From positions 12,648,001-12,712,000 of the forward strand of contig NC_073379.1 in NCBI RefSeq assembly GCF_028641065.1: a stretch of 64,000 nt of DNA, in the 5' to 3' direction. The DNA is from Leucoraja erinacea. Lineage: Eukaryota. Both the position numbers and the translations under genes were made by a program. Positions 32,654 through 64,000 of the stretch are shown piece by piece; positions within the stretch are counted from its first letter, which is position 1, and each line of letters begins with the position of its first letter. The notes under the pieces are model-generated. The model ran no database searches and had not been told where the DNA came from. It saw only the letters and a list, made by a program, of their open reading frames with translations.

Positions 32654-32753
32654 CTGAGTTTGTCACGGTAGAAGATAACACACATCACTAAAAGGACAAT
32701 GGTTTTTAATCCGAGAGGGATCCACAGGATCAGAACCTTGTAACTCTGTGTGA
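32654..32753 (-). CDS. transmembrane exon, copy A
   Basis: ctcctcag|TC ACA CAG...VTQSYKVLILWIPLGLKTIVLLVMCVIFYRDKL AG|gtacgt. Confidence 0.8.
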
Positions 32754-34069: not shown

Positions 34070-34495
34070 CGGGTGTGATCCGCACCCGGAGCTGGACCTG
34101 CAGCTGGACCTCACGCTGGTACTGATGGGTGAACGGGGGGTGTACGCTGCTCTTGAACTTTTCGTCGACGTTGTTTATCGCAGCGTTGTTTTCAGTTTTG
34201 TTGAACTCCACCAGACACAGGTAGCCGTCACTGTCCTCCACACTCAGCTGCTTTATCCTGGTTGAGGCGTTTCCCAGCTCTGGGTCCCCGACCAGCTCGA
34301 ACCGAGTTGCTCCGTTCTCCGCCGCCCAGGATCCATCAGCTTGTGGTCTGAACGTGACGATGTGTCGGTAGGGATCCTTCCTCATCCATGTGACCGTGAG
34401 GGCCCTGGGGTAATGCGGGGATTGCCGATACACACATGGTAACGTGGCCGAACCCCCCTCAGTCCCATTCACCACTGAGACATCCCCGCCGGGAC
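34070..34495 (-). CDS. Ig V-set exon 2 (V2), copy A
   Basis: ccctcag|...EGGSATLPC...VTW...RFELVGD...DSDGYLC...G|gtaag; 426 nt, phase 1-1. Confidence 0.88.
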
Positions 34496-34659
34496 CTGAG
34501 GGAAGGATAGACACCGGAATGTATCAGCGTTCTGTGGGTGAATCGTCTTGTACCGACCTCTCCCTGTGGGAGTGGGTGGAGCCGGTGCCCAGTGTGGAGC
34601 TGACAGTGACGGTCCCAGGGAAGGTGGGCCAGGGGGCGCAGGGGACAGGACACATTCAA

Positions 34660-37490
34660 GGGTGGTGAGGGAGCGGCTTTGTGAGTAAAGTGTGAGTCTT
34701 TGGCTTGAGATTCTTCGGTGAGGAGGCTGAGGAGAGGAGACTACGCAAAAAGCTGGAGATGACGGGACGCGGTGAACACACGAAGGGGAAGATGAGACAG
34801 TGTGATGCAGAATGTGGGAGCCCAGCGACATGGATGGAGCCTCTGGCTGCTACAATGTGGCATGTGTGTCCGGGTTCAGCTCCTGAAGGACCGTTTTGCG
34901 GCACAGGAGAAGCGGGTGGATGACCTCAGGGCCATCTGGGAAAACGAGAGTTTCCTGGTCAGGACCTATAAAGGTTACGGGAAGAACCAAGACTGTGAGA
35001 CAGGGACGTAACCATGGAGTGCAGGAGACCAAGGTGGCTGTGCCTAATGAAAATATATACACATTATTGGGGGAGACGACGCTTCCAGTCCGAGCAGTGG
35101 CTCCAATCCTAGAGATGGGACTCGACTTGCGAGACCGACGTCGGGCAGATCCATAGTGGTGGGTGACTCCATTATCCCAGTTGTGGACAGGAGATTCCGT
35201 GGAGGCAGGCGAGACGCGAGGATGGGCTGTTGCCTCCCTGGTGCCAGGGTTCAAGATGTCACGAACCGAATTCAGAACATCCTCGAGAGAGAAGGTGAAC
35301 AACCCGCAGTAGTTGTGCACGTCGGCACAAACGACATAGGGAAGAAGAGGAAGGAGGTTCTACAACTCGTGTTAAGAGAGTTAGGAAGCAGACTGAAAAG
35401 CAGGACTTCTAGGCTGGTTATCTCTGGATTTTGTCCAGTACCTTGTGCTAGTGAGGACAGGAGCAGGGAGATAGGGGATCTGAATGTGTGGCTGAGGGGC
35501 TGGTGCGGGGAGCAAAGATTTAGATTTATAGACCACTAGGATCTCTTCTGGGGTAGGGGTGACCTGTACAAATGGGACGGGTTACACCTTAACTGGAGGG
35601 GGGCCGACATTGTGGCAGGAAGATTTGCTAGGGTCACACGTGTGGGTTTAAACTAAATAGTGGGTGGGAGGGATCGACAAATGGGAGTATAAAGATGCGG
35701 TTGACGGGGAAGTGGCTACAGGAAAAATTACAAAAGACTCTCGGGAAGGAAAGTTCGAAAAGGGATAAGAGAATGTCTGGGTCAATTGCGAGCGGTGCGA
35801 GGGGGGAGGTGAATACGGAGGTCAACGTGTTGTATAGGAATGCACGAAGTATAAGAAATAAAGTGGACGAGCTTGAGGCTCAGTTAGAAATTGGCAAGTA
35901 TGATTTTGTAGGAATTACAAAGACATGGCTGCAAGAGGGCCAGGGCTGGTAACTGAATATTCAAGGGTATACCTCCTATCGAAAGGACAGACAGCTGGGC
36001 TCTGTTGGACGTGGGGTAGCTCTGTTGGTGTGGAATGAAATTCAGTCCCTTGCAAGGGGTGACATTAAAATAGGAGACGTGGAGTCAGTATGGATAGAAC
36101 TAAGGAATTGTAAGGGTGAAAATACCATAATGGGCTTGTCAACAGCCCCCCCCCCCCCCAAACAGTAGCCTGAACATAGGGTGCAAGTTGAACCAGGAGT
36201 TAAAATTGGCATGTAGCAAAGGTAATGCTAAGATTGTTATGGGAGATTTCAACAGCAGGTAGACTGGGAAAATCATGTTGGCACTGGACCCCAAGAAAGA
36301 GAGTTTGTGGAGTGCCTCCGTGATGAATTCCTAGAGCAGCTTGTACTGGAGCCTACCAGGGAGAAGGCCATTCTGGATTTAGTGTTTTGTAATGAACCGG
36401 ATTTGAGAAAGGAGTTTGAGGTTAAGGAGCCGTTAGGAGGAAGTGACTAATATGGTCGTTCAATCTACTATTGGAGAGGGAGAAGAGCAGATCGGAGGTG
36501 GCCGTGTTACGGTTGCATAAAGGGGACAATGGAGCCATGAGGGAGAAGCTGGCCAAAGTTCACTGGAAAGACACCCTAGCAGGGATGACAGTGGAACGAC
36601 AATGATAGGTATTTCTGGGAATAATACAGAAGGTGCGGGATTATTTCATTCCAAAAAGGCAGAAAGATTCCAAGGGGAATAAGGGGCGACCGTGGCTGAC
36701 CGTGGCTGACCGTGGCAGATGCAGTTTAATTTGGATACATGTGAGGTTAACCACTTTGGTAGCAAAAACAGGAAGGCAGATTACTATCCAAACGGTGTCA
36801 AGTTGGGAAAAGGGAAAGTACAACGGGATCTGGGGGTCCTTGTTCATCAGTCTATGTAAGTAAGCATGCAGGTACAGCAGGCAGTGAAGAAAGCGAATGG
36901 CAAGGTGGTCTTTATAACAAGAGTGTAGGAGCAAATAGGACCTTCTGCAGTTGTACGGGGCCCTAGTGAGACCACACCTGGAGTATTGTGTGCAGTTTTG
37001 GTCCCCTAATTTGAGGAAGGACATTCTTGCTATTGAGGGAGTGCAGCGTAAATTTACAGGGATAATTCCCGGGATTGCGGGACTGTCATATGCTGAGAGA
37101 ATGGAGCGACTGGGCTTGTACACTCTGGAGTTTAGATGGATTAGAGGGGATCATATTGTAACATATAAGATTATTAAGGGTTTGGACACGCTAGAGGCAG
37201 GAAACATGTTCCCGGTGTTGGAACCAGGGGCCACAGTTTAAGAATAAGGAGTAAGCCATTTAGAACGGAGTCGGGGAAACACGTTTTCTCACAGAGAGTT
37301 GTGAGTGTGTGGAATTCTCTGCCGTTTCTCTGGATACTTTCAAGAGAGAGCTAGATAGGATTCTTAAAGATAACGGAGTCAGGGGATATGGGGAGAAGGC
37401 ACGAAGGGCGTACAGATTGGGGATGATCAGCCATGATCCCATCGAATGGCGCTGCTGGCTCGATGGGCCGAATGGCCTATTCATGCACAT
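34660..37490 (+). mobile_element. CR1 LINE with ORF1 (Cys knuckle + SGNH esterase), endonuclease and internally deleted RT, in intron 2 of copy A
   Basis: VGDSII...CLPGARVQDV...VHVGTNDIG; LYRNARSIRNKVDELE; VRPHLEYCVQFWSP; many stops. Confidence 0.88.
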
Positions 37491-38212
37491 ATTGTCTATT
37501 GTCTATAACGTCATCTTCCTATTTCGCGGATTACACAGCCCACCTGTATTTGACTGCCGACCAGGGCCGGCGTCTCGTCTACTCCAGGAGCGCACGGTCC
37601 AGACGGATTAACTGGAGAGGAATCAGGAGTAGGAACTCTGGCACTTCAGCCCCTGCGAGTGTTCTCCGGCTTGGCCCTGCTGTAGGACCGGCTCGCCGAC
37701 CGCGGATCTCTCGCCCAGCAGCGCGGCTGTGAGTGTTCTCCGGCATGGCCCAACTTTAGGACCGGCTCGCCGACCGCGGACTTAACGACTGGACCCGCGC
37801 CGTAATAATGAAGAGGGACCCGGGAGCAACCTCCGTCGGGGAGTGTGGAGGGTCGTCTGAAAGTGAGCAGGGCTGTCGGGGGGCGAGGAGGGCAGCCGAG
37901 AATGACAGTGAGGGGAGAGGTGGGGCCGATGCCACCAGCGGCAGCAGGCAGTAGAGAGAACTGCCGTGAATCTTTGCAGCTGTCGGCGCCAAAACGTGGC
38001 GACACTTGTGTACTGTCAAGGTGACGTCCGCTACATGATTGTTCTGGGTTGTCTGCAAAACAACGTATTTCACTGTACCTGGGCACGTGTGAGAATACAG
38101 TATCATTGAATCATTGAATTGAACCATCAACATGTATTGATCAGCATTGTACTGGGGGAACCCGCGGTCCGTGAGCTCTGGGGCAGCGACAGTCTCTGAA
38201 CATTGTTCTCAC

Positions 38213-38596
38213 CTTCCACAGTCAGCTCCGTTGGAATCACAGATTGAAATTTCCCAACATTGAGCTCCAGGCGGCACCGGTACTTATCCCTGTCCACCCG
38301 TCTCAGTGGCTCCACCATTATCGAGGCATCTCCCTCTCTGAGGTTCCCCACGAATCTGAAACGACTGCCTCCGGCCTCCTGTGTCACTTCATCGCATCGG
38401 GAGCGGCCGGGACCGGCAAATGTGCAGTTAAACGCAATGCTGGGATTCAATGATGTCCTCTTGTACCACAGCACGGAGCCGCTGAGGTTGTGATCAATGC
38501 CTGGGTGGGTGAATGTACACGGCAACACAGCGGAGGCCCCTTCCACGGCAGACACCCCATCAGCACCGGACATTGACCAATTAATTTAGGAAACAG
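38213..38596 (-). CDS. SIGLEC15-like V-set exon 1 (V1), copy A (stop in 4th codon)
   Basis: WSMSGADGVSAVEGASAVLPCTFTHP...AFNC...RC...RFRFVGN...DASI...DRDKYRCRLEL...TELTVE G|gtgag. Confidence 0.85.
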
Positions 38597-38779
38597 CTGG
38601 AGAGAGAGCGAGAGAGAGAGAGAGGAGGTACAGGTGCGCGGTTCCAAATCCACACTGTCCCCGGGTGGTTGTCACAAGCGATGTCTTCAGATTTGGGACT
38701 GAATCATCAACACGGGGGCGGGGATATAATCACCAATTCATGTGTGTGTAATCACGTCTGTTCCGCGGGTCACCACAAG

Positions 38780-38866
38780 GGGTGCCGGAGGAGGTAGATG
38801 GCAGCCCCGCCGGCAGTCTATTCGTTTTTCATCCTTTTGGGTTTTTTTTAGCGTTTGTTTAAGTTC

Positions 38867-38930
<64 letters not shown>

Positions 38931-39520
38931 AGGGGGCGGTTCCAGGAGATGTGATCAACTTTTGGATCACATTCTCCGGGCTCTGCGGCCTACCATCGCT
39001 GGAGCTGGGAGCCGCCTCGGACTGTCGTGAGCCCCACCGCGGGGCGCGGACTAACCATCGGAGCGGATCCCTTGCCTGGGATCGCTCCCACCGCAGCCTG
39101 CGGACTTACCATCAAGGGCTCGCAGTCTCGGGAGAGGCTAGTCGGGAGCTCCAACGCCGCAGACGGTTTGTCCAGCCCCGACGCGAGGTTTCATCGCCCG
39201 GCGCGGGGGAGCTGACTTCTCCCGTTGCAGGAGCTGGACGCCTCGACGCCGCCGGCTATAGGTCTCAAGACCATCCCGTCAACGGAGGGTTCGAGGCCCC
39301 CAACCAAGGAAGAACAAGAAGGAAAGGATTGGAACTTTATTTTCGCCTTCTATCACAGTGAGGAATATGTAGGAGTCACTGTGGTGGATGTTAAAATGTG
39401 TTTTTTTGAGTCTGCTGCTTTTTAAATTGTATGACTGACCTGGCCAGTGAATTTCACTACACCAATTGGTGTATGTGACAATAAACAAACTTATGAACTT
39501 ATGAAATTATGAATTTATGA
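38780..39520 (+). mobile_element. non-autonomous LINE-tailed repeat containing (GT)n (38871-38928); paralog at ~61300-62080
   Basis: GC-rich body ending gtatgtgacaataaa followed by (gaacttat)n-like tail; no coding motifs. Confidence 0.5.
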
Positions 39521-41877
39521 GTTGTTTTTTTATAATGTTGCCGATTTATTTACATTCTGGGGAGGAGAAATGTTTGGACATTTTTCAGGAACGGGAACGG
39601 AAATGGATTCTTCGGATTCTATCACTGTCACATAATAGATTCATAGTGGAGACGGCCATTCGTTCCATCGGTTATATGCTAACACAATGTAACATCAATC
39701 TAGCCAGTCGAACCTCCAGTCAGCCCTGCAACTTCCTTACTTACACATACCGTCGGTTAAATTTGCCCGTCTCCGCCCCCCCTCCCCTCTCCCACCGCCG
39801 GCGCCGCGTCCCAGTGGAACCGCTCCCTGCGAGGACTCATGTCCCTCAGCAACACACTTGATTCCTTGGCCAATCACCTCCATGCTGTATAGTCATCTCT
39901 TCTCTGTCCACTAATGGGAACAACCTCCCTGTGCGCAATGTTAAATCCCTCCATTAAATCTTCTCTCGACCTCAGTGTTAGGAACTGGAAACCAGTCGGC
40001 CCCTCCAGCTCGCACCTCCGGAAAATAACATCGCGGCTGCTCTACTGTTAACCCTCTCTCCATATCCCCGCCTGCTCTCCGGCAACCTTGCCCCCTCTTG
40101 CTTATTGGGATTCTCGCTCTGTTTTATGAATGGCGGTCTCCATACGCATTTCCTCCATCTTAGCCGTTACCAGATAACCTACACCAAGGGCTCGGTGGGT
40201 ACGAGGGCCCCTCACCACCACCTTCTGAAGGACGCTTAGTTATGGATAATATCACCTGAATCCCCACCCGCCCCATCTCATCTATTGACACCTCAGCCAA
40301 AGTACAAACGGCAGGAGCGCGGACAGAGTGCGAACCGGTACATTGGGAGATATGACGAGACAATGAGGAGATAACAAGGTCAACAAAAACACCTACTGTA
40401 ACCGTGGACTGAGACGGAGAGCAGGACGGTGCAGAGACAGACCCGGAGAGAGCACATCGCCAACACTTCAGTGTGGTGTCCACTTCACCCACAGTTGTGA
40501 GATTCTTGACACTGAAATGCGGAACTTGCTCCAAGTATTTCTACATTTCCGGCAAAGATTTGAGGAACTGCTATACGTACTGATAATTAGTCATTTCATA
40601 CGGAGCAGGGTTAGGGTCCTGAGCAAAAATCAAAGTCATGGAGGAACTAAGCGGGGTAAGCAGTATCCGTGAATGGACATTAACAGACGGCGTCAGAATA
40701 AAGAGGCCAAGACCCGGCACGTCGTCTTCCCATTCTCCTCCACAGGCGTTGCCTGAACCGCTGATCTTTTTCCAGCAATTTGGTTTTCGCACAAGATTCC
40801 GGATCTGCATGTTCGTGTCCCCAGCATTATCGCCATGGAGCGGTGTAGTGCAGGAACAGGCCTTCTAACCCGACATGCGTACAATGTGCCAACAAGTATC
40901 CATCGCCATAATCCTAGTGACCCTCGAGGAATGCAAAGAACGTCAGAGAGTCTTTACATGTAATAGCACAGGCAGACAAAATTAATGATCATCTAGATCA
41001 ACTGCGAAAATGTGCTAAGGAATAGAAGGCCAGTCATTTAAAAAAAGTAATGACGCACACTGTGAACGACGGGGCCCTGGCGAGTGCTGGAAAACAAAGA
41101 GCCCAATAGCACACAAGGTAACATTTTCCAGAAATTGGCGACACGGGTAGTCAGCGTGGCGAGGAAGGTGTGTGGCAGGTTTAGGCAGGATTAATGTGGC
41201 CCATCCACATTAATCCCACCTTAATCCAATTCAACCCATCAAAGGCTGTATCTCATTCCAGGGTAGCTGTCATCTCGCTTTGTTTCCAATGATATTGCGC
41301 CTGTGAAATCTACTTCTGGGTTTTCCAGTTTGTGTGAGGAAGTGAATGTAAAGAATGAATCACCCGTTGTCACCCTGCAATCGGAGCGACAGCAGGACCC
41401 AGCAACGACAACCCCACAGACACTTGTTCACCAACACCTCAGTGCTATAACCACCTCTCTCACGGCTGTTTAATTCTAGACCCATTTGCTTTCTTCATTT
41501 GCTGCAGAATGTTCAGGAGTTGCTAAACTACAAAACTAGGCTCCCTGCATCACTCCCAACCATCTCTTCTCTGTCCACCAATGGGAACATCCTCTCTGTA
41601 GGCGATGTTAAATCCCTCCATTAGATCTTCTCCCGACTGGAAACCAGTCGGCCCCTCCAGGTTGTACCTCCGGTCAATAACATCGCGGCTGATCTGCTGT
41701 CAAACCTCTCTCCATATCCCCGCCTGCTCTCTGTCAACTTTTGCCCTCTTGCTTATCGTGTCTCACTCTGTTTTATGAATGGCGGTCTCCATACGCATTT
41801 TCCTCCAACTTAGCCGTGACCAGATAACCTTCACGAACGGCTCGGTGGGTCAAGGGGGCGCCTTCCCACCACCTTCT

Positions 41878-47360: not shown

Positions 47361-50300
47361 CAATTCCCTGACACGTTGACTCCAGAAGCGTGTCAAACCT
47401 GTGGATTAACTAAAGCTCGCAGTATTTATACCAAGACAGATGATCTTACAACTATAGGGCAGAGGGTTGTGAGACTGGAGAGATGTAAGAGGGAATCGAT
47501 GAATAATATTTTCAGACATTCGTCTGCATATGGGATGAAGCTATGGAAGCAGATGCGATTATGACTTCCAAACGGCATTTCGACATATATGTATACGATC
47601 ATAAGATTATAAGACACAGCAACGGAGTTAGTTCATTCGCCTATCGAGTACACTCCTCTTTTCCCGAATCGTCAGCTATCCACGTCTTCCAGCGGCGCCT
47701 GCCTGATGCGCTGAGTAGCTCCGGAACTTTGTGTCTTTTTGCGGAGTGATTATTTAGTTTTCTCTGACGTTCAGTGTCCCATTATAGACACCCTGGAACC
47801 GGTTCCCTCGCTCTCGCACCGAGGCTCTGTATTCTCATGGTACCTCCTTGGGCGAACACAACGGACTCAGAAAGGGAAGGTTGAGAGTGATGGGTAGAAA
47901 TGATTTAGAGCGACATGGGTCAAACGCATGCAAATGGGTGTATCTTAGACGGGGAATCCTGAGTAGCATCAAAGGGTGGGTCCGAATGGCCTCTTTGCAA
48001 GTTCTATTACTCGAGCAACAGGCACCAACTTGGTAAACTGAGCTCCTGTTCCCGCCCTCCCTTTAAACTCACCGGACCCCAGGTCCCTCGCTCCCTTTAA
48101 ACCCACTGGGGGACACATTAAAGTGCCCCCCTGAAACTGACTGGGTAAACTGGAGAAATTAGTAAACGGCTGTGTGACATTAACAAATTAAAAACGAGTC
48201 GGAGAATTAATATGATTGACAACCAAAGTTCGATAAAGTCAGTCACACCGCAAAAGCAGGTGGGATCGGCGGACGTCATTGTGAGAATATGTCCACATTT
48301 ATCTAGCTTGTAAGATCGGGACAAAAGACCTAGTTTGTGGGAGGATCGTTCAGTAATCGGAAAACAGCGGGACACTAGGAAACGGGAAGTTTAGAAGGAT
48401 GAGGGGTCTCTTCATTAAAACTGACCGAATAGTGAAAGACCTGAATAGAGTGGATGCGGAGAGGATGTTTCCACTAGTGGGAGAGTCTAGGACCAGAATA
48501 AGAGCACGTACCTCTAGAAATTATGGAATTCCTTGCCAGGGAAGGCTGGTGATCGCCGTCAATTTATATATTTAAGGCGGAGATGGATATATTCTAATGA
48601 GTACGGGTGTCATGGGTTATGATGAGAAGGCAGTAGAATTGGGTTTAGAGGTTTGTGCTGCACACGATGCCAAGACCTACTCTAACCTGCCAGCTCTTAA
48701 TTCATATCCCTCCATTCCCTGCCTTTTTGGCTGTAGCTTCAGGGTGGTTGGTCGAGGACACATTATTGGCGATATTTGCCCTAAGGACAGTTCCTTAGGG
48801 CAAATTATCAGGGAACCGGGAGCCTTCATCTACTTCCAGCGGCTCACGCAGCGTCTGTGGACGACGTGGATCGCTGACATTTCGCATCGGAAACATTCCG
48901 CTCCTTTGTCTTGTTGATATTGAAAGAGGGGTGTGGGCGCGGGGGAGGGGTGTGGGCGTGAGGGTTGTTTTACTACGCTCTCTATCTACATCCGGTACAC
49001 CATCTCATCATTGTTTGACATCGACCCACTACAATGGTGTCATCTCCAAACTGGTAGATGATCCAGAGCAGAGTTTGTCCGCACAACCGCGACTATGGGG
49101 AGAATAGTAGGGGAATGCCAATACATCCTTGCGGGGCACCTGTGTTGAGAATTATTGTGGAGGATGTTTTGTCGCATATCTTCGCTGCTTGTGGTCCATG
49201 GGTCAGGAAGTGGAAGATCCAATGACAGAGGGGGAAATGTCACTGGACCCCATCTTCAGAAGTTTGAAGAAGAGTTTGTGGCGGCACAGTGGAGCAACAG
49301 TGGAGTTGCTGCCTTACAGCGCCATGTTCCATCCTGACTATGCGTGCTGTCAGTACGGAGTTTGTATGTTCTCCCTGTGACCGCGTGGGTTTCCTCCGAT
49401 GTGCAGGATAGTGTTAATACCGGGTTCACTGGTCGGCGGGGACGCCGTGGACCTGTTTCCACGCTATATCTCTAAAATATAAGGTCTGTTTGGGGCTGAC
49501 ACACGGGTGACTGGATTTACACGGGATTAGTGATCTGAGTTTGATAGGAATTTGCTTTGTTCGTTTACGGGTCAAAGTTTGTTAACACACCAAGACCCAC
49601 ATTTTCGTAATACCTCTGACAAACAGAGGCCCCGGGATTGTGTGATCCTTTATTTTAACCCGGGTACGGGTCCCACACTCCATTTAAACACTAGGGTTCC
49701 GTATTCCCATAGTACCTGCTCAGCCTGGGAAACACAAACGACTAATATATGAAAGGGTGAGTGATTGATGGGTCAATGGGTAGAAAATATTTAGAAGGAT
49801 AATGGGTCAAACGCAGGCAAATGGGTCCAAATTAGGTGGGGCATCTTGGGCAACATCAACGAGTGGGGCCGAAAGGCCTGTTTGCATGTTCTATGATTGT
49901 AAAAGCAGGCACCAACTTGTCAACCTGAGCTCCTGTCTGTGCTGTTCTGCCCGTGACCGGGAGGATTTTCTCCGGGAGACCCGGCTTCTACCCACATTCC
50001 AAGACCGTGCGGGTGTGTAGATCAATTGGCCTTTGTCTATTTCACCTAGTGTATAGCGAGTGGATGAGTAAATAGGATAACATAGGGCACGTGTGAACGG
50101 GAGATCGATGGTGGACGTGGATTCTGTGAACCGAAGGAGTTTCCATGCTGTATCTGTAAACTAAGATCAAGCGCTACGGTGATTGGCTGGAGAATGGCGG
50201 GGAATGGACTGAGATTTGTGCAAGATAACAGGTAACAAAGAAACAGAACTGGAGATGAGTCAAATGCTCGATGTGGCCATGGACCCAATGGGCCGAATGG

Positions 50301-51575
50301 TCCTTTGGAAATGTTACAAGCAATTCAGAACGTCATTGTATTAATACAAAAATAAAGCAAGCCGAATAATTATTGTATATCTGAATTTAATAACCATTAT
50401 ACACGTTGTTCCATGTTGCCCTCTCATTCAAATATATTGAGAGATTTATACATATACGAAATTAAGCACACTGAATTCAAAATTAAAGTTATGTTCTCTA
50501 TGTATTGCATAAGTGAATTTAATTAGCATTTTCGATTTATCGCCCTTCCATTAAAATTTACTTCGAAGGTTGTAAATATTTTAAATTAAGCAAACTGCAT
50601 TAATAATAAGGTTGTGTTCCCTGCGTGCTCAATGCATCATTTGAGATTTATAAGCACAGCACTACAAAGCAAAGGACTCGAAATAAGTTAGTCAGGATCC
50701 AGGGGTTGCCACAGCACGGAGGTTTGGACATTCTTCTGGAGTCAATGGGTCAGAGAATTGTACAGTGAAGAAATTGGGCCTTCGGACACACATGTCGATA
50801 TGACCATCTTTGTCTATGCACATGCATCCCGTTGGCCTCAATTAGATCCATATCCTTCCAACTTGTAATAAGAGGGAACTGCTGATGCCGGTGTTTACCA
50901 AAGATAGACACGATGTGCTTGCGTAACTCAGTGGATCAGGCAACAACTCTGTAGGACGTGGATAGGTGACGCTTCGTGCCCGGTCCCCTTCTAACCAACT
51001 GGGAATTTGCAGCACTTTGTCTATCATTCCAACTATTTCCGAATTAAGAGCCTGTTCATGCGTCTAAACGTCTATCGAACATGTTGGTGTATCTCATTTC
51101 CACCACTTTGTTTACTAGCATATTCCAGATATCAAACCCTCTCGGTGTACAGAACCTTTCCTTTGAACTAGAAGTACTGCATTTTATTATATTACACAAA
51201 TATTAAAAGCGAGTCGGATAATTAATATGATTGACAACCAAAGGTCGACAAAATCAGCCAGACCGCAAAAGCAGGTGGGATCGGCGGACTTCATTGCGAG
51301 GCAGGTTATATTGCAGTCGGAACACTGGTCTGCTCAGCTTCCACGGATGGATCAGTCTTCCACGCTTGCTGCGGACACAACAAGACCAATTAACACAAGC
51401 CTCAGTAATTATACCACAAGACCATTCCTGGCATCTCCATTCACAGCCGTCATTTACATTTGTGAAGTGATTCGGACGGAGATTTGAACGGAATTCTCCA
51501 GAGGGTCAACGTTATTGTCAATGTCAGCGTTTGACAACAACATTTGAGGTGGACATCAATATGCGAAACAGGTGA

Positions 51576-54500
51576 TTAACTTAACAGGGGACACGTATAT
51601 TGTTCGTTGTGTTCACAGTGAGGAGGATTGTCTGACCTGCAGCAAGGTATTGGTTTATTATCGTCACCTTGACACAGATAGGAGGAAAAAAACTTTGTTT
51701 CGCGTGTCATCCAGATAAATTATTCCATAGACCCAAACCGTGCAGAATATAGTCTTACAGAGAAAGGGCAGAGGGCAAGGGCCCCATCAAGGTAGACTGG
51801 AGGATCGGGAATACATTCTTATCTTTTGAGGGATTTCTCAAAGCGTCTGAGCGCGTAAGAAACTGTTCTTCCATCTGTAGGTACATGATGCACCTGAGCC
51901 ATGTATTGCCAACGTGACAGGGGTACCACGGTGGCGCAGTTGTAGAGATGCTGCCTTGCAGCGGAGAGTCCCGGGTTCGATCCTGATTACGGGTGCTGTC
52001 TGTGCGGAGTTTCCACGTGCTCCCCGTGACCGCATGGTTTTTGTCCCTCCCATATCCCAAAGACTTGCGGGTTTGTAGGGTAATTGTCCTCTGCAAACGC
52101 CCCCTATAGTGCAGGATAGAACTAATGCATGGATGATGATGGTTGGCGCGGCCTAGGAAGCCTCACAGTTTTCAATCACACCCCAAAGGTCATTGAGTTT
52201 ATATTCCAGGCATAGAAACGCAACATTACGTACCTGAGTTTGTCACGGTAGAAGATAACACACATCACTAAAAGGACAATGGTTTTTAATCCGAGAGGGA
52301 TCCACAGGATCAGAACCTTGTAACTCTGTGTGACTGAGGAGAGAGTGAGAGAGATCAGAGTGGTCACTTGGAAAGTGGAGCGATCGACAATGTACAAATG
52401 GTGTATGCTTCACTAAGATCACCTCTTATTCTCTACACTCTAGAGAATACAGGTCTAATCTGCTGGAGGAAATAACAGACTGCTGACAGCGCTCAGGAAG
52501 TCAGGCAACTGTCGAAGGAAACCCAAATACGTCGTTTTGTCCGGGAATCCTTCCAGTTTTGAGGCAAATCTCGAATTGAATTGTCATTCGGCAATTTCCT
52601 TCCAGACATGCTACCTGGCCGATCGAGTTCCTCCAGTAACTTTTTTTTTCTGCTCAATGTTCCTGTGCCTGCATTCTCCAGGGTCTCCGGTCTAATCAAT
52701 CTCCCCTGATCTTCAATCAACCTGCCCTTCTGGGAAACAGTGGCGGAATCTTCACTACACTCCCTCCACACTAATCGTGGTTTTATTGTAGTTAAGAAGA
52801 ACAAAGTCCGACCCAGTATTGCAGGTGAGGTCCCGCTAGATCCTTATATAACCTCGGTGAAATATCTCAATCCTTGAATATAAATCCTCTCTTGACAAAA
52901 CCCGAACAACTATAGCCTTTCTCGACTCTTCCACCCTTCATTGACACGAGAACAAGCACAATATGGTCCTTTTGAACATCCACACCACCCGATCTCTGAC
53001 CATTTAATAAACACTCTCTCACCCGATGCGGATAATTTGACAATTTGCCCATTTTATTCCACATGCTCCCACCCCCTTCTCGACTCCTCCTGCCCTCTCA
53101 GTCCCACGGCACTACCACCATCATCAGACCTGACAATTGCCCCCCCCAATGACACTGAGCAGACAAGCTGAGACCTGGTCCTTTTGAAGTACCTCGCCAG
53201 CCGCAGACTCCCAACATGACAGAGATCCAGATATTTCATTCTACATTCTCCTCGATAACAGCTTCTCAATCCCTAACGGCGCGTTGCCTTAATGCCGCCT
53301 TCTCGCACCTGGTTCCCCAAACTCCTGGCTGGGACCCAACCTAGATCCTTCTGAGATCCAACCTACCACAGCACCTTGTTATCTCGGGCATTCAACTCCT
53401 CCCTCGCCAATAGACTCCAATCAGCTTGTCAACTATGGTCCCCGAATCTCCGCGTCCTCCTGCCCTCTCTCAGTCCCACGGCACTACCACCATCATCAGA
53501 CCTGACAATGCCCCCCCCCCCTCTCAATCAAACTGACTGATGCAGACTGTGAATAGCTGAGACCAAGAACCAAACTGTGAAGTACCTCCCTCGCCAGCCG
53601 CAGACTCTCAACATGACAGAGATCCAGATATTTCATTCTACATTCTGCTCGATAACAGCTTCTCAATCCCTGACAGTGCGTTGCCTTAATGCCGCCTTCT
53701 CGCACCTGGTTCCCCAAACTCCTGGCTGGGACCCAACCTAGATCCTTCTGAGAATCCAAACCTACCACAGCACCTTGTTCCCTCTCGGGCATTCAACTCC
53801 TCACCTCGCCAATAGACTCCAATACATTGATCAACTATGGTTGACTTTTCTCTGGAGTTGTATCTGACCCTCTAGATGCGAGGCTGCGCCCACTGAGTCC
53901 TGAGAGACAGGGTTTCCTGTTCCTGCTCTCCTCCCTCCCTCTGCACCCTCGCTCTACACGGCAGAATGTGGCGATAGTTTCTTACCGGGTGTGATCCGCA
54001 CCCGGAGCTGGACCTGCAGCTGGACCTCACGCTGGTACTGATGGGTATACGGGGGGTGTACGCTGCTCTTGAACGGTTCGTGGATGTTGTTTATCGCATC
54101 GTCGTTTTCAGTTTTGTTGAACTCCACCAGACACAGGTAGCCGTCACTGTCCTCCACACTCAGCTGCTTTATCCTGGTTGAGGCGTTTCCCAGCTCTGGG
54201 TCCCCGACCAGCTCGAACCGAGTTGCTCCGTTCTCCGCCGCCCAGGATCCATCAGCTTGTGGTCTGAACGTGACGATGTGTCGGTAGGGATCCTTCCTCA
54301 TCCATGTGACCGTGAGGGCCCTGGGGTAATGCGGGGATTGCCGATACACACATGGTAACGTGGCCGAACCCCCCTCAGTCCCATTCACCACTGAGACATC
54401 CCCGCCGGGAGCTGAGGGAAGGATAGACACCGGAATGTATCAGCGTTCTGTGGGTGAATCGTCTTGTACCGACCTCTCCCTGTGGGAGTGGGTGGAGGCG

Positions 54501-57500
54501 GTGCCCATGGCTCTGCATCAGGGGTCATTGGTCGTCGCTGAAGGCACAGCGAAACCGCGCCTACCCGGATCACAACACTGTTCTCCACGGGAAATATTCA
54601 ATATGTGAAGCGGTGAAGTCCACACCGAGAGGGAAACCCGCTCACACGGGATTGGGCACCGGGCACCGACACCTCCTTTAACACTGGACACTTCGGTTTC
54701 CATTGATAGTTGGATTCCAACACGGTGAACACTAAGGAATTTGATTTGTAAATTAGGCAATTTATTGGTCAATAGAAGCAAGGCTGCTCTGGGAGGGCGG
54801 CAGTGAGGGAGCGGCTTTGTGAGTAAAGTGTGAGTCTTTGGCTCGAGATTCTTCGGTGAGGAGGCTGAGGAGAGGAGACTACGCAAAAAGCTGGAGATGA
54901 CGGGACGCGGTGAACACATGAAGGGGAAGATGAGACAGTGTGATGCAGAATGTGGGAGCCCAGCGACATGGATGGAGCCTCTGGCTGCTACAACTGTGGC
55001 ATGTGTGTCCGGGTTCAGCTCCTGAAGGACCGTTTTGCGGCACAGGAGAAGCGGTTGGATGACCTCAGGGCCATCTGGGAAAACGAGAGTTTCCTGGACA
55101 GGACCTACAGTGAGGTAGCCACGCAAAGGTTACGGGAAGAACCAAGACTGTGAGATAGGGACGTAACCATGGAGTGCAGGAGACCAAGGTGGCTGTGCCT
55201 AATGAAAATATATACACATTATTGGGGGAGACGACGCTTCCAGTCCGAGCAGTGGCTCCAATCCTAGAGATGGGACTCGACTTGCGAGACCGACGTCGGG
55301 CAGATCCATAGTGGTGGGTGACTCCATTATCCGAGTTGTGAACAGGAGATTCCGTGGAGGCAGGCGAGATGTGAGGATGGTCTGTTGCCTCCCTGGTGCC
55401 AGGGTTCAAGATGTCACGAACCGAATTCAGAACATCCTCGAGAGAGAAGGTGAACAGCCCGCAGTAGTTGTGCACGTCGGCACAAACGACATCGGGAAGA
55501 AGAGGAAGGAGGTTCTGCAACTCGTGTTAAGAGAGTTAGGAAGCAGACTGAAAAGCAGGACTTCTAGGCTGGTTATCTCTGGATTTTGTCCAGTACCTTG
55601 TGCTAGTGAGGACAGGAGCAGGGAGATAGGGGATCTGAATGTGTAGCTGAGGGGCTGGCGCGGGGAGCAAGGATTTAGATTTATAGACCACTGGGATCTC
55701 TTCTGGGGTAGGGGTGACCTGTACAAATGGGACGGGTTACACCTTAACTGGAGGGGGACCGACATTGTGGCAGGAAGATTTGCTAGGGTCACACGTGTGG
55801 GTTTAAACTAAATAGTGGGTGGGAGGGATTGTCAAATTGGGAGTATAAAGATGCGGTTGTAGGGAAGTTGGTACAGGGGAAATTACAAAAGACTCTCGGG
55901 AAGGAAAGTTCGAAAAGGGATAAGAGAATGTCTGGGTCAATTGCTAGCGGTGCGAGGGGGGAGGTGAATACGGAGGTCAACGTGTTGTATAGGAATGCAC
56001 GAAGTATAAGAAATAAAGTGGACGTGCTTGAGGCTCAGTTAGAAATTGGCAAGTATGATTTTGTAGGAATTACAGAGGCATGGCTGCAAGAGGGCCAGGG
56101 CTGGTAACTGAATATTCAAGGGTATACCTCCTATCGAAAGGACAGACAGCTGGGCTCTGTTGGACAGGTGGGGTAGCTCTGTTGGTGTGGAATGAAATTC
56201 AGTCCCTTGCAAGGGGTGACATTGAAATAGGACATGTGGAGTCAGTATGGATAGAACTAAGGAATTGTAAGGGTGAAAAGACCCCAATGGGCTTGTCAAC
56301 AGCCCCCCAAACAGTAGCCTGAACATAGGGTGCAAGTTTAACCAGGAATTAAAATTGGCATGTAGCAAAGGTAATGCTAAGATTGTTATGGGAGATTTCA
56401 ACATGCAGGTAGACTGGGAAAATCAGGTTGGCACTGGACCCCAAGAAAGAGAGTTTGTGGAGTGCCTCCGTGATGAATTCTTAGAGCAGCTTGTACTGGA
56501 GCCTACCAGGGAGAAGGCCATTCTGGATTTAGTGTTTTGTAATGAACCGGATTTGAGAAAGAAGTTTGAGGTTAAGGAGCCGTTAGGAGAAAGTGACTAA
56601 TATGGTCGTTCAATCTACAATTGGAGAGGGAGAAGAGTAGATCGGAGGTTTCCGTGTTACGGTTGCATAAAGGGGACAATGGAGCCATGAGGGAGGAGCT
56701 GGCCAAAGTTCACTGGAAAGATACTCTAGCAGGGATGACAGTGGAACGACAATGATAGGTATGTCTGGGAATAATACAGAAGGTGCGGGATTATTTCATC
56801 CCAAAAAGGAAGAAAGATTCCAAGGGGAATAAGGGGCGACCGTGGCTGACCGTGGCAAATGCAGTTTAATTTGCATACATGTGAGGTTAACCACTTTGGT
56901 AGCAAAAACAGGAAGGCAGATTACTATCCAAATGGTGTCAAGTTGGGAAAAGGGAAAGTACAACGAGATCTGGGGGTCCTTGCTCATCAGTCTATGTAAG
57001 TAAGCATGCAGGTACAGCAGGCAGTGAAGAAAGCGAATGGCAAGGTGGTCTTTATAACAATAGTGTAGGAGCAAATAGGACCTTCTGCAGTTTTACGGGG
57101 CCCTAGTGAGACCACACCTGGAGTATTGTGCGCAGTTTTGGTTCCCTAATTTGAAGAAGGACATTCTTGCTATTGAGGGAGTGCAGCGTAAGTTTACAGG
57201 GATAATTCCCGGGATTGCGGGACTGTCATATGCTGAGAGAATGGAACGGCTGAGCTTGTATACTCTGGAGTTTAGATGGATTAGAGGGGATCATATTGTA
57301 ACATATAAGATTATTAAGGGTTTGGACACGCTAGAGGCGGGAAACATGTTCCCGGTGTTGGAACAAGGTGCCACAGTTTAAGAATAAGGGGTAAGCCATT
57401 TAGAACGGAGTCGGGGAAACACGTTTTCTCACAGAGAGTTGTGAGTCTGTGGAATTCTCTGCCGTTTCTATGGATACTTTCAAGAGAGAGCTAGATAGGA

Positions 57501-60500
57501 TTCTTAAAGATAACGGAGTCAGGGGATATGGGGAGAAGGCACGAAGGGCGTACAGATTGGGGATGATCAGCCATGATCCCATCGAATGGCGCTGCTGGCT
57601 CGATGGGCCGAATGGCCTACGCATTTATTCCTATGAAGAAAAAAAGGGGTAAGGGTAAGAACAGTCAGCCATGGCTCAGTAAAACTATAAAGGATAGTAT
57701 TCGGCTGAAGGCAAGGGCATATAAGGTAGCCAGAGATAGTGGGAGGGTAGAGGATTGGGAAGCATTTAAAGGTCAGCAAAAAATAACTAAGAGATTAATT
57801 AAGACGGGGAAAATAGACTATGAAAGGAATTTAGCGAACAACATAAAAACTAATAGTAAGAGTTTTTATAGCTATATAAAAAGAAAAAGGGTGGCTAAGG
57901 TGAACGTTGGTCCATTGGAGGGTGAGACTGGAGAGTTGTTGGTGGGGAACATGGAAATGGCAAAGGCATTAAACGAGTATTTTGTATCAGTCTTCACCAT
58001 AGAAGACACAAAAAATATTCCAACGCTGGATAAACAGGGGGCGGTAGGAATGGAGGAGCTAAATACTATTAAGATCACCAAGGAGGTGGTATTAGGGAAA
58101 TTAATGAGACTGAAGGAGGATAAATCCCCTGGGCCTGATGGATTACATCCAAGGGTCTTGAGGGAGATAGCGGTGGGGATTGTGGATGCATTGGTGATAA
58201 TTTTCCAAAACTCCCTGGAGGCAGGAACGGTCCCAGTGGATTGGAAAATGGCCAATGTAACACCTATATTTAAAAAAGGAAGTAAACAGAAGGCGGGTAA
58301 CTATAGACCGGTTAGTCTAACATCGGTGGTGGTTAAAATGTTAGAGACAATTATTAAAGAAACACTAACGGGGCACTTGGATAAACATGACTTCATCGGA
58401 CAGAACCAGCATGGTTTTGTGAAGGGGAAGTCCTGTTTAACGAATCTGCTCGAATTCTTTGAGGAAGTAACAACCCGGGTGGATAAAGGGGAACCGGTGG
58501 ATGTGGTATACTTGGACTTCCAAAAGGCTTTTGACAAGGTGCCACATAAGAGACTATTGCTAAAAATAAAAAATTATGGGATTGGGGGTAATATATTAGC
58601 ATGGGTAGAGGATTGGCTAACAAATAGGAAGCAGAGAGTGGGGATAAATGGTTCATACTCGGGATGGCAACCGGTAACTAGCGGGGTTCCGCAAGGGTCG
58701 GTGCTGGGACCCCAGTTGTTCACAATTTATATAAATGATTTGGAGGAGGGAACCAAGTGTAATATATCAAAATTTGCGGACGATACAAAAATGGGAGGAA
58801 AAGTAGGGGATGAGGAGGATAGGAAGAGTCTGCAAAAGGATATAGATAAGGTAGGTGAGTGGGCAACAACTTGGCAGATGAAATTTAATACTAATAAATG
58901 TGAAGTCATTCACTTTGGGGAAAAAAATGATAGGGCAAGTTATTTTCTAAATGAGGAGGAGCTGCGTTGTAATGCAACGCAAAGGGATCTAGGGGTACTA
59001 GTACATGAATCACTGAAAGTTAGTATTCAGGTGCAGCAAGCAATCAGGAAGGCCAATGGAGTTTTGGCCTTTATTGCTAGGGGGATTGAGTTTAAAAAGA
59101 CGGAGGTCTTGCTGCAGCTGTACACAGTATTAGTGAGACCACATTTGGAATACTGTGTACAGTTCTGGGGTCCATACTTAAGAAAGGATGTACTAGCCCT
59201 GGAGGCAGTGCAGCGAAGGTTTACAAGATTAATTCCTGCAATGAGGGGATTGACATATGAGGAAAGGTTAAGTAGGCTGGAACTCTACTCTTTGGAGTTT
59301 AGAAGAATGAGAGGCGATCTCATTGAAACATATAAGATCGTGAGGGGCCTTGATCGGGTGGATGCACCGAGGATGTTCCCAATGATCGGGGAAACTAGAA
59401 CTAGGGGACATAGTTGCAGAATAAGGGGGGGGCTCTTTTAAAACTGAGATGAGGAAGAACTTCTTCACCCAGAGGGTGGTTAATTTATGGAATTCACTGC
59501 CCCAGGGAGCAGTGGAAGCAGAAACTTTAAATATATTTAAGACTAAAATAGATGGTTTTTTAGCTGCCAAGGGGATAAGGGGCTACGGGGAGAGGGCAGG
59601 GATATGGACCTAGGTATGGTTAGTATAGTAAGACCTGAGTGATCTCCTGGACAAGTGTCGATCGCCTAGATTGGGGTCGGAGAGGAATTTCCCGGATTTT
59701 TTTCCCGAATTGGACCTGGGTTTTTATCCGGTTTTTTGCCTCCCCCAGGAGATCACGAGGTTCTTGGGGTGGAGAGGGGTGATAGCGGTATAAAGGGGAG
59801 GGTAGTGTCTTGTGTTCTGTGTCTTGTGTCTACTGTTTGTGGGTAAGTGTGTCTGTTTAGTGTTCAGCCATGAGCGAATGGCGGTGCGGGCTCGATGGAC
59901 CTGGTGGTCTGCTCTCGCACCTACTTTCTATGTTTCTATGTTTCTATGCATGTACATATTGTCTAATGTCTATAACGTCACCTTCCTATTTCTCGGATTA
60001 CACAGCCCACCTGTATTTGACTGTCGACCAGGGCCGGCGTCTCGTCTACTCCAGGAGCGCACTGGCCAGACGGATTAACTGGAGAGGAATCAGGAGTAGG
60101 AACTCAGGCACTTCAATCCCCCACCCCCACACCACCCGACGCCAGGCGGCGATGGTTCTCGCCCAGCAGCGCGGCTGTGAGTGTTCTCCGGCTTGGCCCC
60201 ACTTTAGGACCGGCTCGCCGACCGCGGACCTAACGACAGGACCCGCGCCGCAAGAACGAAGAGGAACCCGGGAGCAACCGCCGAGAGGAAGGTGGGCCGT
60301 CGGAGAGTGAGGAGGGTCGTCTGATAGTGTGGAGGGTCGACGGAGAGTGAGTTGGGCCGTCGGGGGGCGAGGAGGGCAGCCGAGAATGACAGTGAGGGGG
60401 AGGTGGGGCCGATGCCACCAGCGGCAGCAGGCAGTAGAGAGAACTGCGGTGAATCTTTGCAGCTGTCGGCGCCAAAACGTGGCGACACTTGTGTACTGTC

Positions 60501-63032
60501 AAGGTGACGTCCGCTACATGATTGTTCTGGGTTGTCTGCAAAACAACGTATTTCACTGTACCTAGGCACGTGTGAGAATACAGTATCATTGAATCATTGA
60601 ATTGAACTATCAACATGTGTTGATCAGCATTGTACCGGGGGAACCCGCGGTCCGTGAGCTCTGGGGCAGCGACAGTCTCTGAACATTGTTCTCACCTTCC
60701 ACAGTCAGCTCCGTTGGAATCACAGATTGAAAATTCCCAACATTGAGCTCCAGGCGGCACCGGTACTTATCCCTGTCCTCCCGTCTCAGTGGCTCCACCA
60801 TTATCGAGGCATCTCCCTCTCTGAGGTTCCCCACGAATTTGAACCGACTTCCGGCCTCCTGTGTCACTTCATCGCATTGGGAGCGGCCGGGACCGGCAAA
60901 TGTGCAGTTAAACGCAATGCTGGGATACAATGATGTCCTCTTGTACCACAGCACGGAGCCGCTGAGGTTGTGATTAATGCCTGGGTGGGTGAATGTACAC
61001 GGCAACACAGCGGAGGCCCCTTCCACGGCAGACACCCCATCAGCACCGGACATTGACCAATTAATGTAGGAAACATCTGGAGAGAGAGCGAGAGAGAGAG
61101 AGAGAGGGGGGGGGGGGTGGGGGGGAGAGGTTAATATTGGAACGAGTACAGGTGCGCGTTCCAAATCCACACTGTCCCCGGGTGGTTGTCACAAGCGATG
61201 TCTTCAGATTTGGGACTGAATCATCAACACGGGGGCGGGGATATAATCAACAATTCATGGGTGTGTAATCACGTCTGTTCCGCGGGTCAGCACAAGGCGG
61301 TGCCGGAGGAGGGAGATGGCAGCCCTGCCGGCAGTCTATTCGTTTTTCATCCTTTTTGGGTTTTTTTAGCGNNNNNNNNNNNNNNNNNNNNNNNNNNNNN
61401 NNNNNNNNNNNNNNNNNNNNNNNNNNNNNNNNNNNNNNNNNNNNNNNNNNNNNNNNNNNNNNNNNNNNNNNNNNNNNNNNNNNNNNNNNNNNNNNNNNNN
61501 NNNNNNNNATCAACCTTAGGATCACATTCTCCGGGCTCTGCGGCCTACCATCGCTGGAGCTGGGAGCCGCCTCGGACTGTCGTGAGCCCCACCGCGGGGC
61601 GCGGACTTACCATCGGAGCGGATCCCTTGCCTGGGATCGCTCCCACCGCGGCCTGCGGACTTACCATCAAGGGCTCGCAGTCTCGGGAGAGGCTAGTCGG
61701 GAGCTCCAACGCCGCAGAAGGTTTGTCCAGCCCCGACGCGAGGTTACATCGCCCGGCGCGGGGGAGCTGACTTCTCCCGTTGCAGGAGCTGGACGCCTCG
61801 ACGCCGCCGGCTATAGGTCTCAAGACCATCCCGTCAACGGAGGGTTCGAGGCCCCAACCAAGGAAGAACAAGAAGGAAAGGACTTGGAACTTTATTTTCG
61901 CCTTCCATCACAGTGAGGAATATGTAGGAGTCACTGTGATGGATGTTTATGTTAACATTTGTTTTTTTGAGTCTGCTGCTTTTTAAATTGTATGACTGAC
62001 CTGGCCAGTGAATTTCACTACACCAATTGGTGTATGTGACAATAAACGAACTTATGAACATGAAATTATGAACTTATGAGTTGTTTTTTTATAATGTTGC
62101 TGATTTATTTACATTCTGGGGAGGGGAAATGTTTGGACATTTTTCAGGAACGGGAACGGAGATGGATTCTTCGGATTCTATCACTGTCACATAATAGATG
62201 CATAGTGGAGACGGCCATTCGTTCCATCGGTTATATGCTAACACAATGTAACATCAATCCAGCCAGTCGAACCTCCAGACAGCCCTGCAACTTCCTTACT
62301 TACACATACCGTCGGTTAAATTTGCCCGTCTCCGCCTCCCCCCCCCCCTCCCCCCCCCCCGGCCCCCTCTCCGTCCCCGTCCCAGTGGAACCGCTCCCTG
62401 CGAGGACTCATGTCCCTCAGCAACACACTTGGTTCCTTGGCCAATCACCTCCATACTGTATAGTCATCGCTTCTCTGTCCACTAATGGGAACAACCTCCC
62501 TGTGCGCAATGTTAAATCCCTCCATTAAATCTTCTCTCGACCTCAGTGTTAGGAACTGGAAACCAGTCGGCCCCTCCAGCTCGCACCTCCGGAAAATAAC
62601 ATCACGGCTGCTCTGCTGTTAATTCTCTCTCCACGTCCCCGCCTGCTCTCTGTCGCCTTTTCCCCTCTTGGTTATCGAGAGTCTCAATCTGTTTTATGAA
62701 TGGCGGTCTCCATACGCATTTTTCCTCCATCTTAGCCGTTACCAGATAACCTACACCAAGGGCTCGGTGGGTAAAGAAGTCGCCTCACCACCACCTTCTG
62801 AAAGACTCTGCCGTATGGATAATATCACCTGAATCCCCACCCGCCCCATCTCATCTATTGACAGACCTCAGCCAAAGTACAAACGGCAGGAGCGCGGACA
62901 GAGTGCGAACCGGTACATTGGGAGATATGACGAGACAATGAGGAGATAACAAGGTCAACAAAAACACCTACTGTAACCGTGGACTGAGACGGAGAGCAGG
63001 ACGGTGCAGAGACAACCCCGGAGAGACCACAT
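51576..63032 (-). CDS. SIGLEC15-like two-V-domain activating-type receptor, copy B (spliced, ~342 aa)
   Basis: Exons 62972-63032 (MWSLRGCLCTVLLSVSVHGY, donor gtaggt), 60696-61076 (V1), 53986-54411 (V2), 52234-52333 (TM with Lys), 51576-51636 (tail RSDNPPHCEHNEQYTCPLLS*, least certain). Total 1029 nt, no internal stop, all GT-AG. Confidence 0.8.
52234..52333 (-). CDS. transmembrane exon, copy B
   Basis: Same peptide and splice sites as 32654-32753. Confidence 0.8.
53986..54411 (-). CDS. Ig V-set exon V2, copy B
   Basis: Within ORF 53954-54430; LPC...W...DSDGYLC; ccctcag| and |gtaag. Confidence 0.88.
54740..57620 (+). mobile_element. CR1 LINE (ORF1 esterase + EN + deleted RT), paralog of 34660-37490
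   Basis: Same motifs and same internal deletion, so it predates the duplication. Confidence 0.88.
57625..59943 (+). mobile_element. young 5'-truncated CR1 LINE with uninterrupted RT ORF, only in copy B
   Basis: ORF to 59441: KSPGPDGLHP, NYRPVSLTS, YLDFQKAFDKV, SGVPQGSVLGP, KFADD; (ctatgttt)n tail; flanks ctacgcat / ctatgcat (probable TSD). Confidence 0.93.
60696..61076 (-). CDS. SIGLEC15-like V-set exon V1, copy B
   Basis: ctctccag|AT GTT TCC TAC ATT AAT TGG...; LPCTFTHP, two extra Cys, YRCRLEL; G|gtgag; 381 nt. Confidence 0.9.
62972..63032 (-). CDS. signal-peptide exon, copy B (copy A: 40397-40457)
   Basis: ATG + 20 mostly hydrophobic codons, phase-1 donor gtaggt matching the V1 acceptor phase. 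Confidence 0.7.
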
Positions 63033-64000
63033 CGCCAACACTTCAGTGTGGAGTCCACCTCACCCACAGCTGTGAGCTTCTTGACGCTGAAATGCGGAAC
63101 TTGCTCCAAGTATTTCTACATTTCCGGCAAAGATTCGAGGAACTGCTATACGTACTGATAATTAGTCATTTCATACTGAGCAGGGTTAGGGTCCTGAGCA
63201 AAAATCAGTCATGGAGGAACTAAGCGGGTTAAGCAGTATCCGTGAAGGGACATTAACAGACGGCGTCTGAATAAAGAGGTCAAGACCCGGCACGTCGTCT
63301 TCCCATTCTCCTCCACAGGCGTTGCCTGAACCGCTGATCTTTTTCCAGCAATTTGGTTTTCGCACAAGATTCCGGATCTGCATGTTCGTGTCCCCAGCAT
63401 TATCGCCATGGAGCGGTGTAGTGCAGGAACAGGCCTTTTAACCCGGCATGCGTACAATGTGCCAACAAGTATCCATCCCATAATCCTAGTGACCCTCGAG
63501 GAATGCAAAGAACGTCAGAGAGTCTTTACATGTAATAGCACAGGCAGACAAAATTAATGATCATCTAGATCAACTGCGAAAATGTGCTAAGGAATAGAAG
63601 GCCAGTCATTTAACAAAAGTAATGACGCACACTGTGAACGACGGGGCCCTGGCGAGTGCTGGAAAACAAAGAGCCCAATAGCACACAAGTTAACATTTTC
63701 CAGAAATTGGCGACACGGGTAGTCAGCGTGGCGAGGAAGGTGTGTGGCAGGTTTAGGCAGGATTAATGTGGCCCATTCACATTAATCCCACCTTAATCCA
63801 ATTCAACCCATCAAAGGCTGTATCTCATTCCAGGGTAGCTGTCATCTCGCTTTGTTTCCAAGGATATTGCGGCTGTGAAATCTGCTTCTGTGTTTTCCAG
63901 TTTGTGTGAGGAAGTGAATGTAAAGAATGAATCACCCGTTGTCACCCTGCAATCGGAGCGACAGCAGGACCCAGCAACGACAACCCCACAGACACTTGTT

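Follow-up and report, generated by a model that had tools for sequence, protein, structure and literature searches.

A hypervariable FG loop in a Siglec-15-like paired-receptor family of cartilaginous fishes

Two neighbouring receptor genes of the little skate, Leucoraja erinacea, raise the question of how an immunoglobulin domain can be almost identical between two copies and still differ in a single loop, and of what that loop might do. The window, that is, the whole stretch of 64,000 nucleotides analysed (NC_073379.1, positions 12,648,001 to 12,712,000), holds a tandem duplication made up of unit A at ~28.2-41.4 kb (aligned part 28197..41428) and unit B at ~48.7-64.0 kb (48723..64000, continuing past the window end); the units diverge by 2.7-6.1% by segment and are also set apart by large insertions. 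Each carries one minus-strand gene whose exons encode a leader (40397..40457 in copy A, 62972..63032 in copy B), a first V domain, V1 (38213..38596 and 60696..61076), a second, V2 (34070..34495 and 53986..54411, both 426 nt with AG/GT edges), a transmembrane segment (32654..32753 and 52234..52333, the same sequence in both) and a tail (30793..30808, short, and probably 51254..51368). Over the exons they have in common, copy A matches P0002 (LOC129695295) of the little skate, and copy B matches P0061 (LOC129695296). A lysine of the activating type, K306 (52284-52286), lies within the predicted transmembrane helix of copy B, the reading frame of which is intact through the transmembrane exon. 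One additional base in the last exon of copy B (51359-51361 against 30799-30801, minus strand) shifts the frame and lengthens that exon's tail from ~5 to 38 residues; the public gene model runs into the intron instead. Given that copy A has an in-frame TAA (38586-38588) at codon 24, directly past the leader and at the place of a Tyr in copy B, it is likely null, and some of its changes may consequently be neutral. Its public gene model begins at a later Met and lacks a signal peptide. Annotation likewise gives no leader for P0009, the activating ortholog in Amblyraja; a similar lesion may or may not be the reason.

The original prediction held that eight of nine V2 differences fall within 57 nt, and comparison of the two exons base by base confirms it. 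The clustered sites are 34131, 34132, 34159, 34160, 34166, 34169, 34183 and 34187 in copy A, and 54047, 54048, 54075, 54076, 54082, 54085, 54099 and 54103 in copy B; the ninth (34495/54411) is the first base of the exon and gives Gly/Ala in a split codon. Six residues are changed, as had been claimed (N/D, A/D, V/I, D/H, K/P and F/Y). All eight bases do lie in amino-acid-changing codons, although by codon path seven are non-synonymous and one, in the F/Y codon, is synonymous. Clustering within the exon is beyond chance (scan P 3.5e-5 by base, 7.5e-4 by codon), and loop divergence (8/57) exceeds that of the introns (2.7-4.2%; P 2e-4 to 3e-3, uncorrected). The duplication as a whole diverges unevenly, and eight or more differences per 57 nt also occur in 197 of 8097 ungapped non-coding windows, which form 10 separate clusters. 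The differences that are missing around the loop are as striking as the cluster itself: the loop is flanked on either side by the two longest stretches of identity in the aligned duplication, one of 374 nt in the intron after V2 (33673..34046; B 53589-53962) and one of 307 nt in the V2 framework (34188..34494; B 54104-54410). The former is likely a conversion tract, the probability of zero differences being <=5e-5 at intron-level divergence with no scan correction. Near the V2 exon end, a 12-nt tandem repeat (53999-54022 and 34083-34106, minus strand) adds four residues in both copies; it is absent from Amblyraja relatives, and either predates the A/B duplication or spread by conversion.

The cluster occupies the FG-loop position and the loop is unusually long, as originally proposed: counted from the Cys of strand F to the Leu of strand G, the segment has 38 residues in V2 and 17 in V1 of the same protein. 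The insert spans 34131..34199 in copy A and 54047..54115 in copy B (residues 247-269, the six variable ones within 54047-54103). In the AlphaFold model of copy B (pTM 0.76; insert block pLDDT 79-88), strand F reaches residue 246 and strand G begins at 270, and the insert is predicted to form a knob of two helices (251-255 and 259-262). In the model of the horn shark protein, a short turn is all that stands at this position. Structure prediction, which had been proposed as a check, places a helical knob, itself predicted to be ordered, beside V1.

What kind of receptor bears this knob is suggested by V1, which in copy B is a V-set domain best matched by Siglec-15 both in sequence (E 6.4e-13) and in fold (Z 13.2, rmsd 1.6 over 120 residues). 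PMC10264397 gives W44, R143 and Y154 as pocket residues of Siglec-15, together with a C95-C104 disulfide. Equivalents of all of these are kept in V1 (W27, C78-C88, R128 at 60754-60756, and F136), and R128, which follows C127 in both copies, aligns to R143. Among family rows having the column, C78 is found in 39/39, C88 in 38/39, W27 in 35/35 and F136 in 37/49. The best sequence match of V2 is likewise Siglec-15 (E 8.2e-9), with pIgR a weak match (E about 1e-5). Since Leu replaces Arg at the Siglec position (Leu242 in copy B, and Leu in 50/50 rows), V2 is unlikely to be a canonical sialic-acid site. The proposed division of labour, in which V1 binds glycan and V2 supplies variable specificity, therefore survives as regards the pocket residues kept in V1 and the Leu that V2 has in place of the essential Arg, but not as regards V1 as the constant part, given that the V1 Arg is present in 47/70 family V1 domains and replaced in 23/70, that the V1 CC' loop (2.56 bits) is comparable in variability to the V2 insert, and that A and B differ in V1 by seven non-synonymous changes and one synonymous change.

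Pfam finds two V-set stretches and no passing C2/I-set domain, and Foldseek with the whole model returns generic tandem-V matches only (JAML, scFv; TM ~0.3). The compact Ig1-2 pair of Dlar is matched over ~180 residues by the model of the skate protein (Z 12.5, rmsd 3.9) and by that of the horn shark (Z 13.0, rmsd 3.8). When V1 and V2 were predicted as two separate chains, the complex scored 0.75 and the best control 0.00; the mark is reached by 51/78 solved and 2/108 mismatched pairs (39/65 and 2/126 for eukaryotes). Runs agree in at least 68% of contacts, with partner pLDDT at least 79 and the alignment unused, and the pass may be driven by resemblance to tandem Ig pairs already solved. In the predicted interface, V1 residues 31-46 rest on strands F and G of V2, and the insert ends, 247 and 269, lie at its rim, so in this model the knob likely neighbours V1. 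Residues 248-268 are unnamed in the interface, which is itself uncertain, and their absence is not evidence of exposure. On the V1 side, residues at this interface are conserved (0.63 against 1.37 bits, P 3e-4). Conservation of V2 through burial against V1 was considered and rejected, V2 interface positions averaging 1.09 bits against 0.95 elsewhere (P 0.76).

The skate pair is part of a larger family. A profile search retrieved 76 proteins; one is a 26% match to IGSF2, and the other 75 come from sharks and rays of 16 species. A wide scan added V2-type domains from Mustelus, Cetorhinus, Rhincodon and the chimaera Callorhinchus, and among the P0090-P0125 matches checked for the V2 motif the named carriers are all cartilaginous fishes. 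By motif, members have either a transmembrane Lys (activating) or a Tyr-based ITIM-like tail (inhibitory), and both signalling types are present in most sampled species. In the little skate itself, P0061 and P0002 (Lys) and P0006 (ITIM-like Tyr motifs) combine related ectodomains with opposite tails.

Across this family the V2 core is fixed in length (60 residues in 76/76 pattern-caught domains) and the FG segment is not, ranging from 10 to 33 residues among 72 measurable V2 domains: it runs to 15-18 residues in sharks (19 domains) and, in batoids, to 20-33 in 52 domains of 53, the remaining one having 10. Over 200 within-species pairs, repeats within one protein included, mean identity falls from 0.87 (core) through 0.76 (BC loop) to 0.51 (FG), and core identity is above FG in 187 of the 200. 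Entropy in 50 aligned proteins follows the same order (V2 core 0.66 bits, BC 1.97, FG insert 2.46); the V1 mean is 1.25 bits, above the V2 core. The FG segment is therefore the most variable part of V2 across paralogs, and the outcome that would have told against the original prediction, a loop varying no more than the framework, did not arise.

It is also more variable than the framework in independent contigs, where those of four runs were compared with B 53880-54520 at 85% likeness (4 of 24 runs; 40 of 89 difference rows). A contig from run X7 differs from B at 17 positions in 309 nt, 16 of them inside 54047-54103 (nominal P 2.5e-11), and these 16, read by hand, comprise 15 non-synonymous changes and one synonymous change. 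A contig from X6 has all of its 17 differences, in 154 nt, inside the same 57 nt (nominal P 4.6e-8). The two contigs carry closely related loop types and therefore do not represent two independent events. Framework contigs of the same runs differ from B at 0/109, 0/122, 1/151 and 4/349 nt; other framework contigs, likely older paralogs, differ more (up to 13/92 nt). The best run, X1, contains two further loop types that are neither A nor B and are not among the annotated proteins; its contig depth is 237-282 over the framework and 26-37 over the loop, which fits several copies, though not an exact copy number. Seven of the eight alternative bases of copy A recur in independent contigs, the base at 34183 being absent from the differences listed for the four runs, and neither the exact A loop nor the exact B loop is among the contig pieces listed; contigs drop variants. 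At the K/P codon, five residues (K, P, G, R and W) occur across contigs and related skate proteins.

In light of these observations, the hypervariable loop of this paired-receptor family is real, and ligand contact and selection are likely. The account towards which we lean, with some reserve, is that the V2 scaffold is made uniform by conversion, and that selection maintains differences in the FG knob as a binding surface beside a sialic-acid-binding V1. The two tandem skate genes would then be members of a Siglec-15-like activating/inhibitory family. Gene conversion would keep the V2 framework alike among members, and selection for new binding surfaces would keep the insert different. V1 may bind sialic acid through its Arg, and V1 and V2 are predicted to pack as a compact unit on the V2 F/G face; the insert, beginning and ending at the rim of the modelled interface, could add a paralog- or allele-specific surface. 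By analogy with the Siglec-15 precedent, Lys-bearing members may signal via a DAP12-type adaptor, and they might mimic the inhibitory member's surface toward pathogens. The FG loop would thus likely tune what each receptor binds.

The conversion part of this account draws on the contrasting histories of the two domains. In the tree of V1 domains, inhibitory genes of skates cluster together irrespective of species, and the activating genes do likewise. Copy B agrees with the same-species inhibitory gene at 91/98 positions of the V2 framework and 89/122 of V1, and with the Amblyraja activating ortholog at 83/98 (framework without the insert) and 108/122; this reversal of nearest relative has a Fisher P of 0.004. 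AU tests for V1/V2 discordance gave P 0.004, 0.025 and 0.0003 for clades picked after viewing the trees, and genes with V1 on one deep branch have V2 frameworks that join their own lineage (AU P 0.004; 25 of 50 rows). Because the V2 framework follows species and V1 follows signalling type, gene conversion between activating and inhibitory genes is indicated, and homogenisation of the V2 framework by such conversion is likely, as judged from protein sequences.

The selection part is opposed by a reading that is unlikely on balance and still has to be weighed seriously, namely that the loop is a weakly constrained surface with no role in specificity, its flanks cleaned by conversion and purifying selection and the tracts stalling at the diverged loop. 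Surface loops of Ig domains accept change without selection. Loop length spans 10-33 residues, so the fold does not need the loop, and copy A is likely dead. Identical tracts flank the loop on both sides, as this reading expects, and the patchy duplication, with its 10 equally dense non-coding clusters, fits it as well. Further, the non-synonymous share fits neutrality. For the A/B loop (7/8 non-synonymous) P is 0.44-0.57 against a neutral share of 0.78-0.82 in these Asn/Asp/Lys-rich codons, and for the X7 loop (15/16) P is 0.10 against 0.78. Pooling the loop alleles listed, those of A included, gives 23-24 of 26 non-synonymous (P 0.05-0.14 against 0.78), which is suggestive only. Over the whole A/B coding sequence there are 17 non-synonymous and three synonymous differences (Fisher P 0.25), and transversions are not significantly in excess in the loop (P 0.20 and 0.34). 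Consequently, the A/B pair alone does not show selection, given its neutral-like share and the equally dense non-coding clusters, and the diversifying selection originally put forward is not borne out by any loop dN/dS test at a clearly significant level (P 0.05-0.57). A precedent for relaxation is available as well, the converted exons of Siglec-11/16 being reported under relaxed constraint in PMC5701461. Against this reading, an old neutral patch that escaped conversion would be expected to show no less synonymous than non-synonymous change, but only 2-3 of the 26 listed loop alleles and one of 16 in X7 are synonymous, and A/B loop synonymous divergence (0.078) is below non-synonymous (0.118). 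Likewise, change keeps returning to a handful of codons, next to which the Pro-Pro-aromatic motif is mostly preserved, and the insert is predicted to be ordered. Positive selection on the V2 FG loop is likely, though not statistically significant in these tests.

A second alternative, improbable on present evidence, is that the 57-nt patch was a single conversion into one copy from a third, more diverged paralog, as the original prediction had also suggested. Conversion is evidently active in the family, copy A has Val, Phe and perhaps Asn in common with the inhibitory gene P0006, and unseen donors exist, as the two further loop types of run X1 lie outside the annotated proteins. However, the full A or B set is found in no retrieved protein, and skate P0007 and P0009 match B (Asp, Tyr) and A (Asp, Lys or Val) at different sites, so that changes fall on both the A and the B branches; the claim of one patch from a known third paralog is accordingly not upheld. 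Finally, that the loop differences or the two copies are assembly artefacts, whether base errors or haplotypes placed in tandem, is scarcely credible: the window does contain three N gaps, and the exact loops and the A base at 34183 are missing from the contig pieces and differences listed, but both V2 exons lie on one gap-free stretch (no N gap in 31186-61371), the copies differ by 2.7-6.1% and by the large insertions, all but one of the A bases recur independently, and X1 framework depth is several times loop depth.

Placing these receptors among known systems is instructive. Siglec-15 is usually regarded as a conserved, single-copy activating lectin, with an architecture of one V-set domain followed by one C2-set domain. 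The skate proteins resemble it in V1 sequence, fold, pocket residues and extra disulfide (PDB 7ZOZ; PMC10264397), and in the Lys within the transmembrane helix. They differ in that the second domain is V-set rather than C2, without the Arg and with a long insert, and in that the family is multigene and includes inhibitory members. Given that the V-C2 architecture is not found, the skate proteins should not be filed as Siglec-15 itself, though they would work in the manner of paired Siglecs. In PMC5701461 and PMC2832619, conversion is described as keeping the activating and inhibitory partners alike in Siglec-11/16 and in CEACAM1/CEACAM3, the converted region taking in the ligand-binding first V domain. 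In the skate, by contrast, signalling type is tracked by V1, and conversion appears to have acted on the framework of V2, with one loop left different. A further likeness is the existence of non-functional activating alleles (SIGLEC16P), to be compared with copy A. The MDIRs of the clearnose skate are another multigene set of activating and inhibitory Ig receptors, described as CD300/TREM/pIgR-like in PMC3031540; the proteins considered here share that organisation, and their own top matches are to Siglec-15. The LAR-type Ig1-Ig2 pair (3PXJ), described as V-shaped in PMC6078854, resembles the predicted compact two-domain arrangement, but identity is 16-21%, and the comparison concerns shape alone, with no kinship or common ligand claimed.

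More broadly, an expanded activating/inhibitory family is built on a Siglec-15-related domain across the cartilaginous fishes, and its members are candidate myeloid or NK-type receptors of sharks and rays. Automatic annotation names them inconsistently (Siglec-15, sialoadhesin, TIM-1, pIgR, JAML and A33), and the paired-receptor family is apparently undescribed so far: titles and abstract beginnings yielded no description, although subscription papers on Siglec evolution or skate MDIRs could mention it, and PMC11599192 mentions neither Siglec nor Leucoraja. Should the V2 knob set specificity, the oldest lineage of jawed vertebrates would possess a germline means of producing CDR3-like diversity, and the mammalian pattern, in which the first, ligand-binding domain of paired receptors is the converted one, would be inverted. 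Should the loop be merely relaxed, an ordinary but undescribed paired-receptor cluster would remain.

The V domains of antibodies and IgNAR, and the knobs of bovine ultralong CDR H3, serve as comparison systems for the loop. The skate family resembles antibodies and IgNAR in having a fixed framework on which the BC and FG positions vary both in sequence and in length. It differs from these and from T cell receptors in that loop and G strand lie in one intact 426-nt germline exon with AG/GT edges and without V(D)J joining, and the skate knob, unlike the bovine one, lacks cysteines. A bolder proposal, speculative and rather doubtful, is that in sharks and rays a duplicated Siglec-15 V domain gave rise to a germline antibody-like module in which the V2 knob together with the sialic-acid-binding V1 confers composite glycan-plus-protein specificity on each activating or inhibitory receptor; equally speculative is its further detail of a conversion-homogenised scaffold with loops at the CDR1 and CDR3 positions, the CDR3-position knob having been lengthened in skates and rays and diversified by selection between genes as well as alleles.

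Several additional features of the family and of the window may be recorded. A sister subfamily in sharks and rays (P0104, P0106) has a V-V-C architecture and both Lys and Tyr-motif tails, and the locus number of P0106 adjoins the Mobula cluster, suggesting the same locus. Domain shuffling is seen in P0001, P0003-P0005, P0008 and P0069-P0073 as repeated V2, V2-only ectodomains and V1-V2 repeats. Among the next-best V2 matches are the lamprey multi-V proteins P0097 and P0111 (~33% identity), which are without the V2 motif or the Arg. Adjoining the cluster is a single-exon open reading frame of a rhodopsin-family GPCR (17508-18419, minus strand; Pfam 7tm_1, E 5.8e-17), a possible synteny marker. 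Lastly, insertions at ~31.2-32.0 kb and ~57.6-59.9 kb are each present in one copy only, and fragments of LINEs, recognised from reverse-transcriptase-like frames by translation, lie at 10703-11901, 23668-26060, 31186-32013, 35051-37400, 42696-45443 and 55200-59500.
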